DNA of 64,000 bases from an uncultured candidatus Porisulfidus sp. (GTDB taxonomy: Bacteria; Pseudomonadota; Gammaproteobacteria; Poriferisulfidales; Poriferisulfidaceae). The notes beneath the pieces were generated by a model. The model saw nothing but the letters and a program-made list of their open reading frames with translations. It was not told the DNA's origin and ran no database searches. The translations under genes and the position numbers were made by a program. Below, piece by piece: positions 2,669 through 58,112 of the stretch (its first letter is position 1; the number at the start of each line of letters is the position of its first letter). The DNA is taken from positions 1,040,586 to 1,104,585 of the forward strand of contig OZ241993.1 of NCBI GenBank assembly GCA_965204575.1. Reading direction: 5' to 3'.

Positions 2669-4373
2669 TTCTCGCCTGCAGGAACTCCAGCAGTCCGTCT
2701 GCCGTCACATCTTCCGCCTCGTCGAGGTTGCGACGATGCCGGTATTCCAGCCGGCCTTCTTCGAGCGTGCGCGGACTGATGACCACCCGGTGAGGGATGC
2801 CGACCAGGTCGGCTTCGGCAAACATGACCCCCGGGCGCAGGTTGCGGTCGTCGAGCAGGACCTCAATGCCAAGTTCCCTGCATTGCCCATATAGCGTTTC
2901 GGCGGTATCGCGAACCGTATCGTCGCGATCGGCACCGATCGGGCACAGCAGGACGGAAAAGGGTGCCATCGCATCCGGCCAGATGATGCCATGCTCATCG
3001 TGGTTTTGTTCGATGGCGGCGGCCACGATCCGGGTAATGCCGATGCCGTAGCAGCCCATCGTGACGACCTGAGCCTTGCCGTCGGGATCCAGTACGGTGC
3101 AGTCCATGGCCTGACTGTATTTGTTGCCGAGCTGGAAGATGTGGCCGACTTCAATGCCGCGCGCACTGCGTACGGGACCGCTCCCGTCCGGACTCGTTTC
3201 CCCGTCCTCAAGGTTGCGGATATCGCAGATCTGGTCCGGAGTCGCGTCGCGCTCCCAGTTGACGCCGGTGTAGTGCACGCCCTCGCGGTTGGCGCCGCAC
3301 ACGAAATCCGAAAGCACGGCTGCGCTGGCATCGACGTAGAGGGGCAGTTCAAGCCCGGCAGGCCCCAGCGAACCAACCGGGCAACCGAGCTTCTTCTGGA
3401 CTTCCTCTTCATCTGCAAAGCACAACGGGCTTCGGACGCCTTCGATCTTGGCAGCCTTCACCGCATTCAGGCGATGATCGCCGCGCAGGATCAGCGCGAC
3501 CAGCGAGCCTTCCTCCTCACCCTGGACGATCAGGGTCTTGACCGACTGTTCCGGCGGCGTGCCGAGGAACTCCGAGACCTCCTCGATGGTGTGCTGGCCG
3601 GGGGTGTCGACCTCTTTCATTTCCTGGGTCGGCTCGGGACGCGGGGACTCCGGGGCCGGGGCGGGCGCCTGCTCCACGTTGGCCGCGTAATCCGACTGCT
3701 CCGAATACACGATCTCGTCTTCGCCGGAATCCGCCAGTACGTGGAATTCGTGCGACAGGGCACCGCCGATCGCACCCGAATCGGCCCGCACGTATCGATA
3801 TTCGAGCCCCAGGCGGTCGAAGATCCGGCAGTAGGCGAGGCGCATCTCCTCGTAGGTCTCATCCAGGCTGGCCGGGTCGAGATGGAACGAATAGGCGTCC
3901 TTCATCACGAATTCCCGGGCCCGCATCACGCCGAAACGGGGGCGGATCTCGTCCCGGAACTTGGTCTGGATCTGGTAGTAGTTCACCGGCAGCTGGCGGT
4001 AGCTCTTGAGTTCGCGCCGCGCGATGTCGGTGATGACTTCCTCGTGGGTCGGGCCGAAGCAGAATTCCCGTTCGTGGCGGTCGGCGAAGCGCAGCAGTTC
4101 CGGCCCGTACTGCTCCCAGCGCCCGGATTCGTGCCACAATTCCGCCGGTTGCACGGCCGGCATCAGCAATTCCACGGCACCGCTGCGGTCCATTTCCTCG
4201 CGCACGATGGTTTCGACCTTGCGCGCAACCTTCAGGCCGAAGGGCATCCAGCTGTACAGCCCGGCGGCCAGCATCCGGATGAGGCCGGCGCGCAGCATCA
4301 ACTGGTGGCTCACGATCTCGGCATCGGCCGGGGTCTCCTTGAGCGTGGTCAGAGGCAGTCGGGACAGGCGCAT
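2655..4373 (-). CDS. proS: Prolyl-tRNA synthetase
   Basis: 572 aa bacterial-type ProRS. N-terminus [33 protein letters not shown], with an editing-domain insertion and a C-terminal anticodon-binding domain. Confidence 0.97.
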
Positions 4374-11356: not shown

Positions 11357-14022
<2,666 letters not shown>

Positions 14023-14026
<4 letters not shown>

Positions 14027-54737: not shown

Positions 54738-55031
54738 ATGAAGAAAACCATACCCGCGCTGATCCTGATGCTGGCCTTGTCCCCGGCATACGGATTGGCA
54801 CCTAAACCCCGACCCCTTGTGGACATCTGCAAGGATCACTTCGAAAGAAGTTCCGCCTACCAGAGTTGCACCGATATTCAATATGCGGATGTCGGCGGCG
54901 GCTACTGCAAGGTCATGGCGTGGTGCCGCTCGGTAAATGAAACGCTATCTTCCACGTCCAAGAGGACAAAGCCGTCGGAGGCCGACGAACTGTACAACTG
55001 TCAGGGCCAGTTGACGATCAAGGTTTGCTGA
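54738..55031 (+). CDS. Small secreted cysteine-rich protein of unknown function
   Basis: Signal peptide MKKTIPALILMLALSPAYG|L. Six Cys in about 78 mature residues. Confidence 0.5.
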   Translation: MKKTIPALILMLALSPAYGLAPKPRPLVDICKDHFERSSAYQSCTDIQYADVGGGYCKVMAWCRSVNETLSSTSKRTKPSEADELYNCQGQLTIKVC

Positions 55032-55083: not shown

Positions 55084-56055
55084 ATGCCTTCCGGGGAACC
55101 CGTGCTGGTCACCGGCGGGGCTGGCTACGTGGGCAGCCATGTGGCGCTGGCGCTTCGCGAGGCGGGCTACCCTGCCGTGGTCCTCGACGACCTCTCCACG
55201 GGGCGGCGCGAGGCGGTGCCCGACGGGGTTGGATTCATCGAGGGCGATGTCGGCGACCGGGTCGCCGTCGGCCGCATCCTCGGGGAATCCCGCATCGCCG
55301 CCGTCGTGCATTGCGCCGCCAGCGTCAGCGTCCCCGAATCCGTGCGCGACCCGCTACGCTACTACCGCAACAACAACAGTGCGGGCACGGGCTTGGTCCG
55401 CGCCTGCGTCGAGGCCGGGGTGGGACGCTTCGTCTTCTCGTCGACCGCCTCGGTGTACGGCGTGCCGCGCACGGTGCCGATCCCCGAGGATGCCCTGACC
55501 CTCCCCATCAATCCCTACGGATGCTCCAAGCTGGCCTCCGAATGGATGCTGCGCGATGTCGCGGCGGCCCACGACTTCCGCTGCATCACGCTGCGCTGCT
55601 TCAATGCGGCCGGGGCCGACCCCCGGGGCCGGGCCGGGTCGGATGGCCCGGATTCCGGACACCTGATCGAGGTCGCCTGTGCGGCCCTCGCCGGCCGCCG
55701 CGACCGCGTCACCGTGTACGGCACGGACTACGGGACGGCGGACGGCACCTGCGTGCGGGATTACGTCCACGTGTCGGATCTCGCCGCAGCCCATGTCGCC
55801 GCGCTGCGCGAGCTCGAGGACGGGGGGGAAGGCGGCGTGTTCAACTGCGGCTACGGACGCGGCTTCTCGGTCCGCGAGGTGTTGGAGACGGTGCAGGCCG
55901 AGGCGCGCGTGCGCCTCGACATCCGCGACGGGCCGCGTCGCGCCGGCGACCCCCCGGTGCTGATCGCCGAGGCGTCGAGAATTCGACGGACGCTGCGCTG
56001 GTCGCCGCGCTTCGACGACCTCGCCGTGATCGTCCGCACCGCACTCGCCCGCTGA
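55084..56055 (+). CDS. galE: UDP-glucose 4-epimerase
   Basis: VLVTGGAGYVGSH NAD motif, YGCSKLASE (YxxxK), DYVHVSDLA. 323 aa. Confidence 0.9.
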   Translation: MPSGEPVLVTGGAGYVGSHVALALREAGYPAVVLDDLSTGRREAVPDGVGFIEGDVGDRVAVGRILGESRIAAVVHCAASVSVPESVRDPLRYYRNNNSAGTGLVRACVEAGVGRFVFSSTASVYGVPRTVPIPEDALTLPINPYGCSKLASEWMLRDVAAAHDFRCITLRCFNAAGADPRGRAGSDGPDSGHLIEVACAALAGRRDRVTVYGTDYGTADGTCVRDYVHVSDLAAAHVAALRELEDGGEGGVFNCGYGRGFSVREVLETVQAEARVRLDIRDGPRRAGDPPVLIAEASRIRRTLRWSPRFDDLAVIVRTALAR

Positions 56056-56207
56056 AACCGGCTTCCCGTCGCCGGGACCAGGCGAAGGCCGCGCCCGTGT
56101 GACCGGGGTCCGTATCCGGGCAGGGCCACGTCTTCGGGCGTGTAATGGCGCAGGAACGGCTTGCCGGGCGTGCCGCGGCGGTTGTCGAGCCTGCCGCTCT
56201 CGCGGCA

Positions 56208-56450
56208 TCATGCGAGCAGCCGGGTCAACTGCGCCCGCGACAGCCCGGTGGCCTTGCCCAGGTATGCCTTGAACGCCCCCTTGTCGGCCTTGCCCAGGTG
56301 CGGGCAGTCAAACTGCCGGCAGGTGGCTTCGGTGAAGCGGCAGGCGTCGCAGCGGGAGACCGGCTCCAGGTCGAACGAGTCGTTGCCGGCGGTGAAGTCG
56401 CGCAGGTCCTGCAGGGTCCGGATGCGTCGGGTGTTTAGCTTCAAGATCAT
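56208..56450 (-). pseudogene. N-terminal fragment (80 aa) of an integrase/transposase-type gene
   Basis: MILKLNTRRIRTLQDLRDFTAGNDSFDLEP...LGKADKGAFKAYLGKATGLSRAQLTRLLA-stop resembles, from memory, the HTH N-terminus of DDE integrase-core transposases. No catalytic domain follows. Confidence 0.5.
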
Positions 56451-56543
56451 CCTTCGGATGATCCCGCAGCCCTTCAGGCTCCTGTCTCGTTGGAAATGGT
56501 ATGAAGGCCGCCTTGGTTTTGGCGGGCGGATCATCAGGAGAGA

Positions 56544-56634
56544 GAGGCGAACCCTCCAGCCTGGTTGCTGGAAACCGATATTGTCCACCTGGGGCACTTT
56601 AGATGCCGTACCGGACTGCTGGAGGGTTCGCCTC
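56544..56634. repeat. 17-bp perfect inverted repeat with a 57-nt spacer
   Basis: gaggcgaaccctccagc (56544-56560) and gctggagggttcgcctc (56618-56634), upstream of the transposase fragment. Confidence 0.7.
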
Positions 56635-56722
56635 CTCATCCGATCAGATCCAGGCCGGGCGGCCTTTATAATGGCAATCCACAAATGACGGGCTTCGGAA
56701 GCATCGGAGCATCGGCCAAACA

Positions 56723-57349
56723 ATGGAAGGACCCGACATCGTCTGCGTTCACCAGACCAACTTCCTGGAAAAGGAGGAAGCGCTCCGCCTGCGCGACCAG
56801 ATGGCCCAGGCCATCTCCCTGCACGGAAGCCAGGGGACCGTGGGCAGCAGAGACGGGAATTTCAGCGTCGACAAAACCTACCGGAACTCCAAGATCTACT
56901 TCCTCGACCCGTGGAACCCGCCCGACTGCATGGACGGCGACCTGGTGCGGGCGGTGTTCTACAAGATCGCCGGGTTTGCGGAAATCGCCTGCCGCACCAC
57001 CCTCAAGCACCTTGACATCCGCCTGAACGATCTCGCCGGCACCCCGCTTCAACTCGGCCGCTACCGGGTGGGCGAGCGGTACGAGGAGCATTCCGACAAC
57101 AGCGAGAGTTCGCATAAGGGGCGGCTGCTCTCGATCTCCGTGACCGTCTCGAGCGCCCGCGAGGGCGGCCACCTCTTGCTCAGGCGGCTTCCTCCGAGCA
57201 GTCCGGCGGTCGAGGAAATCCGGCAGGACCGGGCCATCGTCGCCTTTCCGAGCTGGGAACGGCACAGCGTGAGCGCCGTCGAGCAAGGGGAACGCTATTC
57301 GATCGTGACGTGGTTCGAAGGCACGCGCGGAAGCCCGGGGCAGCGGTGA
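56723..57349 (+). CDS. P4H-like 2OG-Fe(II) oxygenase (2OG-FeII_Oxy_3 type), candidate prolyl hydroxylase
   Basis: YRVGERYEEHSD (HxD), GRLLSISVTVSSAREGGHL and VAFPSWERHSVSAVEQGERYSIVTWF (distal His and Arg). Confidence 0.75.
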   Translation: MEGPDIVCVHQTNFLEKEEALRLRDQMAQAISLHGSQGTVGSRDGNFSVDKTYRNSKIYFLDPWNPPDCMDGDLVRAVFYKIAGFAEIACRTTLKHLDIRLNDLAGTPLQLGRYRVGERYEEHSDNSESSHKGRLLSISVTVSSAREGGHLLLRRLPPSSPAVEEIRQDRAIVAFPSWERHSVSAVEQGERYSIVTWFEGTRGSPGQR

Positions 57350-57887
57350 CCGAGGCCCTGGGCCCGGACGCGGAAGGCGGGGCCGCCAGGCAGGCGGAAA
57401 CGGAAGAGGGCGTCGGCAGCGCCCTGCCCGAGGCGAGCAACTCACAAGTGCGGTGAATCAAGCGGCAGGCCTGCGGCTACCGCAGCCGCGAACGCGCCCG
57501 CCAAGCCATCTGCTTCCACCTCGGCGGGCCCGGCCTTTGTCCGGGACCTCCGTTCCAATTCCGTGAAGCCCCCCGCACATAGTCGGTCTCCATAGCGTAT
57601 ATAAGGATAAATGCACACAGGCAATGAGGGCAATGAGGGTGCGCGTGGGTTAGGCAATAATGGTAAGATAATCCTGCACCTGAAATGGATACGGTGCCTT
57701 GTATGGATGATTTGTACGGGAGAAGAAAATGGAAGCATTTGATTGGGTTCTCGGCTCCGTACAGATTGTAATTTTAGGATTTTTGTGGACACTGCATAAG
57801 GACATGTCTCGTCTTGGTGAACGAGTAGCTAAGCTTGAAGGATTGTTTGAAGGATTTATTCGTACAGATAGAGAAAGCACCGCATAA

Positions 57888-58112
57888 TCACGAAGTCAAT
57901 TCCTTGCAGGTGATGGTCTTGCCGGCCATCGCCCGGAACAGATCGTCCAGTCGGTCCTGAGTGTGCCGCTCGCAGTTGCCTGCGTTCAGGCGAAAGGTGG
58001 GCTCGTGACAGAGGGCAGATGGATGAACGAAGACAGCCGTGACGCCTGCGTGGGCCTTCAGTGGGCCTTCAGTCACGGTGTCGCGCTTGGCCCACAGGGT
58101 CCAGAGAGACAC
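57888..58112 (-). other. Gene fragment of unknown identity; its last ~16 codons recur at ~1387-1436 on the opposite strand
   Basis: ...DRLDDLFRAMAGKTITCKELTS-stop, against ...TTLFRAMVGKTITCKEPTS in the clpB-proximal insert. 21 nt (aagaccatcacctgcaaggaa) are identical. Confidence 0.3.

Follow-up and report, generated by a model that had tools for sequence, protein, structure and literature searches.

Most bacteria are held to be unable to make hydroxyproline (Hyp), prokaryotic collagen-like proteins being stabilised by other means, and the only bacterial prolyl 4-hydroxylase (P4H) discussed in the same review literature was tested on synthetic peptides in vitro only (PMC8968730). In this study we analysed a 64,000-nucleotide stretch of DNA (hereafter the window) from an uncultured candidatus Porisulfidus sp. 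of the Gammaproteobacteria (GenBank assembly GCA_965204575.1, contig OZ241993.1, positions 1,040,586 to 1,104,585). Within it, a gene for a 208-aa Fe(II)/2-oxoglutarate (2OG) oxygenase (hereafter the target) lies beside genes for collagen-like adhesins, a PLOD-type lysyl hydroxylase (LH), a two-domain glycosyltransferase (GT) and a GalE-like epimerase. The searched literature yielded no description of a comparable bacterial cluster.

Several characterised enzymes resemble the target in part. Bacillus anthracis P4H (BaP4H; PDB 3ITQ/5HV0) is, like the target, a small bacterial PF13640 enzyme without a peptide-substrate-binding domain or a protein disulfide isomerase (PDI) partner; it acts on collagen-like (PPG)n peptides in vitro (PMC8968730), and its organism also has collagen-like surface proteins. 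The animal collagen P4H (C-P4H), an alpha2beta2 enzyme, has in common with the target the HxD...H triad and the catalytic-loop Tyr (PMC9676403) and, for the reaction that we propose for the target, action on X-Pro-Gly in an unfolded chain. The algal and viral collagen-type P4Hs Chlamydomonas CrP4H (2JIG/3GZE) and PBCV-1 vCPH (5C5T), whose substrates are (hydroxy)proline-rich cell-wall or viral proteins, differ from the target in binding 2OG through Lys (CrP4H Lys237) where the target has Arg191, and in carrying, between HxD and Arg161, a long insertion that the target lacks. The best structural and profile matches to the target were Pseudomonas PPHD and the animal and protist PHDs (4IW3, 6F0W, 6T8M, PHD2), which resemble it in size, in cytoplasmic location and in the Arg-type RxS motif that binds 2OG, but which are oxygen sensors with EF-Tu, HIF-alpha or Skp1 as substrates and are only ~17-20% identical to it.

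The closest analogue at the level of the whole system is the mimivirus set of the lysyl hydroxylase-glucosyltransferase L230, the glucosyltransferase R699 and the P4H L593 (PMC9546862, PMC5802723). Both are non-animal genomes with collagen-like proteins, an LH, glycosyltransferases and a P4H or candidate P4H, and the LH of the window cluster matches L230 at 1e-12. Mimivirus is a eukaryote-infecting giant virus, and no report of its genes forming one compact cluster was found. The window cluster differs from it in having a bacterial host, collagens that are outer-membrane autotransporters, and a P4H-like enzyme that is PHD-like and presumably not L593-like.

Our analysis indicated that the target is probably a cytoplasmic protein prolyl 4-hydroxylase, predicted to act at Gly-X-Pro on the collagen stalks of the clustered adhesins. 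The family, fold, active-site residues, neighbourhood, purifying selection and bias of Pro towards position Y in the repeats of the collagens were observed, and we infer a likely substrate, regiochemistry and cellular order of events. An initial annotation of this DNA had proposed a candidate prolyl hydroxylase for the same collagens, and this proposal is now supported by the neighbourhood, the fold, the active site, a division of labour between two oxygenases and the phage relatives of the target.

Gene mapping in eight orthologue loci (the window, L001, L002, L003, L004, L005, L010 and L011) showed that the cluster of collagen adhesin, PLOD-type LH, GT25+GT_PLOD glycosyltransferase and galE genes lies beside the target in all eight, in three gene orders. 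In L001 and L002 the target and the collagen gene are divergently oriented; in L003, L005, L010 and L011 the target faces galE, as it does in L004, where a called gene of 184 aa with no Pfam match separates the two; and in the window it follows galE in the same direction, past an insert. A cluster lacking the target was not encountered, and a metagenome scan with the glycosyltransferase added two loci only, both with the target. The initial annotation had judged this link to be weaker than that of the lysine pathway; relatives have the target directly by galE or by the collagen gene with nothing between, and the linkage is stronger than had been supposed.

The synonymous divergence (dS) of these genes was compared between loci. 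For the window and L001, dS was 0.09 in the target, 0.39-0.42 in the LH and GT genes and 0.27-0.28 in the backbone genes DapD and GlnD; for L001 and L005 it was 1.15 in the target and 0.16-0.25 in the LH and GT genes, and the target value for the window and L005 was 1.11. These discordant values indicate that the target and the LH-GT block have recombined independently and yet are still neighbours, and therefore that the linkage is more than that of a single inherited block. The ratio of non-synonymous to synonymous divergence (dN/dS) of the target was 0.12-0.28 in deep pairs, showing that the gene is under purifying selection. The same dS values suggest that recombination between lineages affects the collagen/LH/GT/galE block separately from the DNA on either side of it.

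The two proposed substrates combine collagen repeats with C-terminal YadA anchors, which identifies them as trimeric autotransporter adhesins whose stalk is a collagen (Table 1). Pro was counted in runs of at least four G-X-Y triplets, giving 14 residues in Y and 3 in X for the first collagen and 15 and 3 for the second (29 in Y versus 6 in X when pooled), a bias that was significant in each gene (binomial p = 0.013 and 0.0075). Pro occupied Y in 26-27% and X in 5-6% of the triplets, and Thr occupied Y in 5-6%. Across all bacteria, Pro is commonest in X (19%) and Thr is dominant in Y (31.6%) (PMC8968730); the Pro distribution in the window collagens is the reverse of this norm. Lys was found solely in Y (14/0 and 11/0 in the first and second collagen), and the Y-Pro bias persisted in orthologous collagens, with Y/X counts of 19/10 and 25/8. 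The bias itself had been noticed in the initial annotation and was borne out, whereas its counts of 15/3 and 15/4 need slight correction: an extra GAP triplet at an interruption gives the 15 of the first collagen, and the differences are due only to how interruption triplets are treated. The adhesin gene is tandemly duplicated in the window, the C-terminal regions of the copies being 73% identical and the copies differing mainly in the G-X-Y region; L001, L005 and L010 have one copy, and the remaining loci end within or before the collagen gene.

The target open reading frame (ORF) begins with ATG and encodes 208 aa, stop codon included in its coordinates, and it aligned end to end with its four database homologues, from which we conclude that it is intact and not truncated. 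It belongs to the Fe(II)/2OG oxygenase superfamily by its HxD/E...H triad, basic 2OG residue and jelly-roll core, and to PF13640 (2OG-FeII_Oxy_3) by a match of 46.5 bits over residues 110-198 (gathering threshold 27; E=7.3e-12). The identification of a P4H-like HxD...H...R oxygenase in the initial annotation thus agrees with the presence of H123-x-D125, H181 and R191 and with the PF13640 match; the signature is general to PF13640, however, and is not specific to P4Hs. The target falls outside the PKHD-type hydroxylases YbiX/PiuC (NCBIfam PRK05467 equivalogs), scoring 37.4 bits against a cut-off of 143, and outside the PLOD-type lysyl hydroxylases, since LH domains were neither its closest sequence nor its closest fold. 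The GC content at third codon positions (GC3) of the target was 0.856, matching that of the backbone genes, and recent horizontal acquisition was therefore rejected.

Orthologues of the target are rare. Only four 90%-identity clusters (71-91% identity) were present among 5.8 billion proteins, all from uncultured Gammaproteobacteria and with '2OG-Fe(II) oxygenase' as the sole recorded family name. The word-indexed homologue search returned just these four clusters even with a profile, and an exhaustive HMMER search of 1.84 billion representative proteins reached further, to 1709 relatives. Outside the target clade a single cluster reached E<=1e-30 in that search, and after it the best matches with genomic context were phage proteins. 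The target and full-length relatives were assembled into a 30-sequence family alignment (A2), which was used for the profile comparisons and for structure prediction. The AlphaFold2 (AF2) model had a pLDDT of only 32.5 when made with five close sequences, and reached a pLDDT of 93.1 and a pTM of 0.90 when repeated with A2.

Residue equivalences were taken from the alignment of the A2 profile with PDB sequences, in which CrP4H chain numbering is offset by 29 (Table 1). In CrP4H and PHD2 the substrate proline is surrounded by Arg93/Tyr140/Arg161/Trp243 and Arg252/Tyr310/Arg322/Trp389, respectively (PMC2847220). An Arg at the active-site opening, PHD2 Arg322 or CrP4H Arg161, is common to all prolyl hydroxylases and is hydrogen-bonded to the substrate proline's backbone carbonyl; the Tyr before HxD is specific to 4-hydroxylases and replaced by Leu in the 3-hydroxylases OGFOD1 and Tpa1; and the RxS motif has a described role in 2OG binding (all PMC4396695). 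The catalytic-loop Tyr and the 2OG-binding Lys of C-P4H-II are Tyr427 and Lys511 (PMC9676403). All of the residues that mark a protein prolyl 4-hydroxylase were found in the target: R134 as the opening Arg, Y120 within Y120-E-E-H123, and R54 and W197 in the pocket. These four proline-contact residues and the residues of the HxD...H...R triad were invariant across the 30 members of A2. The C-terminal stretch of the CrP4H alignment that pairs W197 with Trp243 had a weak score (-2.6 bits) but was positionally consistent.

Searched against PDB sequences, the A2 profile matched PPHD at 3.7e-14, CrP4H at 3e-10, the PBCV-1 enzyme at 4e-10, BaP4H at 1e-7 and C-P4H-II at 1e-5; prolyl hydroxylases, including the P3H1 catalytic core (2e-7), and PKHD-type enzymes were the only matches in this search, and none was to PLOD. 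A fold ranking of the AF2 model gave Pseudomonas PPHD (18.4), Trichoplax PHD (17.9), Dictyostelium PhyA (16.9), PBCV-1 collagen P4H (16.7), PHD2 (15.8), CrP4H (15.6) and OGFOD1 (15.1), followed by C-P4H-II (13.7), BaP4H (13.4), and mimivirus lysyl hydroxylase and P3H1 (both 11.8). As modelled, the target fold is closest to protein prolyl hydroxylases and not to lysyl hydroxylase. The other oxygenase of the cluster is, from its sequence matches, clearly a PLOD-type lysyl hydroxylase, and the two enzymes therefore have separate plausible roles. Descent of the target as a recent paralogue of the cluster LH was rejected, as the two are 30% identical over the C-terminal jelly-roll core only and have differing PDB neighbours.

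Non-orthologous homologues with genomic context numbered eight (27-34% identity), a small and mostly phage sample examined without controls. Runs of G-X-Y were found within 10 kb of the homologue in five of these, compared with the collagen cluster in 8/8 orthologue loci; chance runs of at least six triplets were absent from the examined bacterial flanking DNA outside real collagen genes. Two phage homologues directly adjoin collagen genes: in L007 (P0006) only 2 nt separate the start of the homologue from the end of a collagen gene of 1151 aa (Pfam Collagen 8e-126), and in L016 (P0019), where the homologue is a SET-oxygenase fusion, the distance to a preceding collagen gene of 949 aa is 6 nt (Pfam Collagen 4e-76). 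In L009 (P0012), also phage, two GT25 genes are adjacent to the homologue, and ~3.3 kb upstream is the end of a protein with collagen repeats, of which at least 1573 aa were read (partial). Shorter G-X-Y runs lie upstream of the phage homologues in L008 (P0008; 7 triplets, ~3.3 kb) and L015 (P0017; 10 triplets, ~1.2 kb). In the phage collagens near homologues, Y-Pro reached up to 41% of triplets, and Pro was abundant in both X and Y.

Further features of these phage loci were recorded. In L007 (4544-7999), public gene calls split the 1151-aa collagen ORF into short wrong-frame genes although the frame that places Gly in every third position is uninterrupted, and metagenome annotations may systematically overlook collagen genes beside such oxygenases. 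In L016 (3-3823) the fusion partner of the target homologue is a SET (lysine methyltransferase) domain at the N-terminus, and the 949-aa collagen protein matches a Hint (intein-like) segment weakly, with a score below threshold. The tandem GT25 genes of L009 (8916-10789, minus strand) stand immediately downstream of the homologue, with the collagen-repeat protein and a DsrC-like gene upstream, an arrangement that resembles a phage version of the module for collagen glycosylation. Scans of viral contigs with single proteins gave three marginal loci or none, and tblastn against cultured phages returned only generically annotated cyanophage-type oxygenases (24-35% identical); matches from a BFVD fold search were likewise generic.

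A number of observations weigh against a collagen P4H. The target is marginally closer to PHD/PPHD-type enzymes, with their EF-Tu and HIF substrates, than to collagen-type P4Hs; its 2OG binder is Arg191, where collagen-type P4Hs have Lys ten residues past the distal His; and it has no peptide-substrate-binding domain of the animal C-P4H kind. The orthologue loci all belong to close relatives among the uncultured Gammaproteobacteria, and part of the synteny reflects shared descent. The target dN/dS for the window and L001 was 0.52, a value based on very few substitutions. A demonstration of Hyp in any native bacterial collagen-like protein was not found in the searched literature. Among the distant homologues, no collagen gene was seen in the available DNA of the phage loci L017 (P0016) and L018 (P0018), the latter with 0.9 kb upstream only, nor within 10 kb in the bacterial chromosomal locus L006 (P0005), where the homologue lies by a 1106-aa GT2/GT1 glycosyltransferase. 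In this part of L006 (5982-10606), P0005, the nearest non-orthologous relative (33% identity), is divergent from that GT2+GT1 gene and stands a few kb from a PALP and DNA_pol_B_exo gene pair that is also found flanking the cluster of the window; P0005 may therefore correspond to the target in position but differ from it in substrate. With respect to subfamily, neither the Lys 2OG binder nor the nearest relatives by sequence and structure place the target among collagen-type P4Hs. For these two reasons it is described here as PHD-like and probably working like a collagen P4H: on its sequence it is not filed in the collagen-type subfamily, though it may act like a member.

The resemblance to PPHD raises the alternative of a regulatory prolyl hydroxylase of the PHD/PPHD type, acting on a non-collagen substrate (EF-Tu as for Pseudomonas PPHD, or another translation or signalling factor) and adjacent to the collagen genes only fortuitously. 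We consider this unlikely. PPHD was the top structural match and shares the Arg 2OG binder, but structure-based identity between the two was only 19%, and PPHD was missed in a PDB sequence search with the target alone, which gave a weak match to one PKHD-type structure only. The rarity of the family, its phage association and its single outside cluster at high significance are also unlike a housekeeping PPHD orthologue. Through three rearrangements the target has stayed beside the collagen cluster, and phage homologues abut collagen genes; substrates of the EF-Tu, HIF-alpha or Skp1 type would leave this conserved place by a collagen-modification cluster unexplained.

Were the target instead a collagen modifier of other chemistry or site, it could carry out prolyl 3-hydroxylation, hydroxylate Pro in the X position, or modify another residue, for example in a second Lys hydroxylation. 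Regiochemistry lies outside what the fold and the four contact residues examined can tell, Pro in (PPG)n peptides is hydroxylated by BaP4H at X as well as at Y (PMC8968730), the family profile extends to the P3H1 catalytic core, and the phage collagens are rich in Pro at both positions. However, Y120 corresponds to the Tyr that marks all structurally characterised 4-hydroxylases, ribosomal 3-hydroxylases having Leu there (PMC4396695), the window collagens have little X-Pro (3 per gene) and a PLOD-type lysyl hydroxylase is already present in the cluster, so that we regard such a role as quite improbable. Still harder to reconcile with the data is a target that is no protein hydroxylase for the cluster at all, whether because it oxidises small molecules or nucleic acids, because it is a remnant without activity or because it is a phage gene domesticated for some unrelated function, and we give this very little weight. 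PF13640/PHROG_61 proteins of cultured phages are generically annotated and have no known function, and the native upstream region of the target has been replaced by the insert in the window, where a promoter and terminator scan gave nothing above chance and detected no sigma-70-like promoter for the target. Against this, the catalytic and proline-contact residues are intact and invariant, the gene shows purifying selection, native GC3 and a conserved neighbourhood, and protein hydroxylases stand above small-molecule enzymes in the fold ranking.

As a prolyl 4-hydroxylase of the adhesins, the target would hold Fe(II) by H123, D125 and H181 and anchor 2OG by R191/S193, with Y114 as a probable further contact. 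R54, Y120, R134 and W197 would grip the proline of a G-X-P-G segment in an unfolded chain, as in CrP4H and PHD2, and oxidative decarboxylation of 2OG would accompany hydroxylation of proline C4. The translations of the target, LH and GT enzymes have no obvious signal-peptide-like hydrophobic N-terminus when inspected by eye, and these three enzymes would therefore act in the cytoplasm, modifying the pre-adhesin ahead of SecB/Sec export; after trimerisation of the adhesin on the surface, Hyp would make its triple helix more stable. In these Gammaproteobacteria an animal-like collagen maturation could thereby be completed before Sec export, with conversion of Pro to Hyp and of Lys to hydroxylysine (Hyl), followed by formation of Gal-Hyl and Glc-Gal-Hyl. 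We tentatively suggest, as a possibility somewhat short of even, that the target represents a new small PHD-like P4H subfamily, common to phages and bacteria and dedicated to the collagens of phage fibres and autotransporters, that completes such an animal-like pathway.

Table 1. Features of the target, its cluster and its surroundings. Coordinates refer to the window unless another locus is named; A2 is the 30-sequence family alignment.
Feature	Coordinates	Strand	Remarks
Target gene	56723..57349	+	candidate collagen prolyl 4-hydroxylase; 208-aa Fe(II)/2OG oxygenase, predicted to be cytoplasmic
R54	56882..56884	+	aligned with CrP4H Arg93 / PHD2 Arg252; substrate lid loop; invariant in A2
Y120	57080..57082	+	three residues before HxD; aligned with CrP4H Tyr140 / PHD2 Tyr310; invariant in A2
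H123-S-D125	57089..57097	+	Fe(II) ligands, HxD motif; aligned with CrP4H His143/Asp145; invariant in A2
R134	57122..57124	+	aligned with CrP4H Arg161 / PHD2 Arg322; invariant in A2
H181	57263..57265	+	distal Fe(II) ligand; aligned with CrP4H His227; invariant in A2
R191-Y-S193	57293..57301	+	RxS motif, 2OG C5 carboxylate; aligned with CrP4H Lys237 and PPHD Arg; invariant in A2
W197	57311..57313	+	fourth residue around substrate proline; aligned with CrP4H Trp243 / PHD2 Trp389; invariant in A2
Collagen-like trimeric autotransporter 1	49297..50727	+	proposed substrate; G-X-Y domain ~49618-50127; Pfam Collagen 2.5e-22, C-terminal YadA_anchor 5.9e-8
Collagen-like trimeric autotransporter 2	50756..52189	+	tandem paralogue, proposed substrate; G-X-Y domain ~51077-51586; Pfam Collagen 1.1e-23, YadA_anchor 3.2e-7
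PLOD-type lysyl hydroxylase, 210 aa	52200..52832	+	PDB sequence matches: human LH3 LH domain 6e-14, mimivirus L230 1e-12
Two-domain glycosyltransferase, 483 aa	52816..54267	+	N-terminal GT25 (COLGALT-like), C-terminal PLOD GT; GT_PLOD 1.7e-57, Glyco_transf_25 2e-17
Two small window-specific ORFs, 140 and 97 aa	54287-54709, 54738-55031		between glycosyltransferase and galE
galE-like NAD-dependent epimerase	55084..56055	+	presumed UDP-Gal supply; Pfam Epimerase 6.4e-57; in every orthologue locus
Window-specific insert	56056..56678		between galE and target; no counterpart in orthologous loci
ORF of insert, 80 aa	56208-56450	-	
Low-GC island	57507-58100		between target and glnD; GC 0.53, GC3 0.50
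SecB export chaperone	48845..49285	+	Pfam SecB 1.2e-34; immediately upstream of collagens
SecB in L001	10856-11278		
SecB in L004	3839-4294		
SecB in L005	~13635-14024		

The remaining genes of the region were surveyed in the same loci. SecB adjoins the cluster in the window, as it does in all five related loci with DNA extending that far, its side and strand differing between them; it may be either the housekeeping gene or a chaperone reserved for the modified adhesins. In L004, a PF13759 (2OG-FeII_Oxy_5) gene (3034-3717, minus strand) adjoins SecB and the target, and homologues of it (35-40% identical) occur within a few kb of the target's phage relatives in L007 (13548-14177, plus strand) and L008 (9501-10550, plus strand). 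No PF13759 gene was present in the window or in orthologue loci other than L004, and this gene may be a third oxygenase of the same module. The two small ORFs between the glycosyltransferase and galE have signal-peptide-like N-termini and a low GC content (0.62 and 0.55), gave no Pfam match and have no counterpart in any related locus; the segment 54287-55031 is a window-specific insertion within the cluster.

The insert between galE and the target showed no homology to L001, L003, L004 or L005. Homology between the window and L001 resumes 44 nt upstream of the target ATG, and the insert therefore marks a rearrangement junction. The label of transposase fragment that this segment had received was not confirmed in five tests. 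Its 80-aa minus-strand ORF had no Pfam or NCBIfam match and no tblastn match in a plasmid collection, and self-BLAST of the window gave no second copy. Among 5.8 billion proteins, the homologues of the ORF were hypothetical proteins of 62-140 aa only, with no transposase domain and never as part of a longer protein. These homologues occur in metagenome-assembled genomes of related Gammaproteobacteria and are 63-100% identical to the ORF over full length; the ORF may be a small mobile or regulatory gene and not a remnant. Downstream of the target, the low-GC island contained no domain matches and no tRNA; L001 has SecB in this place.

The target is genetically tied to its likely substrates, to an LH, to a two-domain Hyl glycosyltransferase and to GalE, and the locus thus offers a testable case for native bacterial collagen hydroxylation. 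Recombinant hydroxylated and glycosylated collagen from E. coli is a stated unmet need in the biomaterials literature, and if the proposed function is true and the enzymes prove soluble and active, they would form a compact, PDI-free set for its production. For autotransporter adhesins, the same function would mean a new kind of post-translational modification. It would also bear on the origin of the animal collagen modification toolkit and on phage transfer of such genes between hosts. Hyp-stabilised, glycosylated collagen would then not be limited to eukaryotes and giant viruses, and the standard statement of the field would be overturned.

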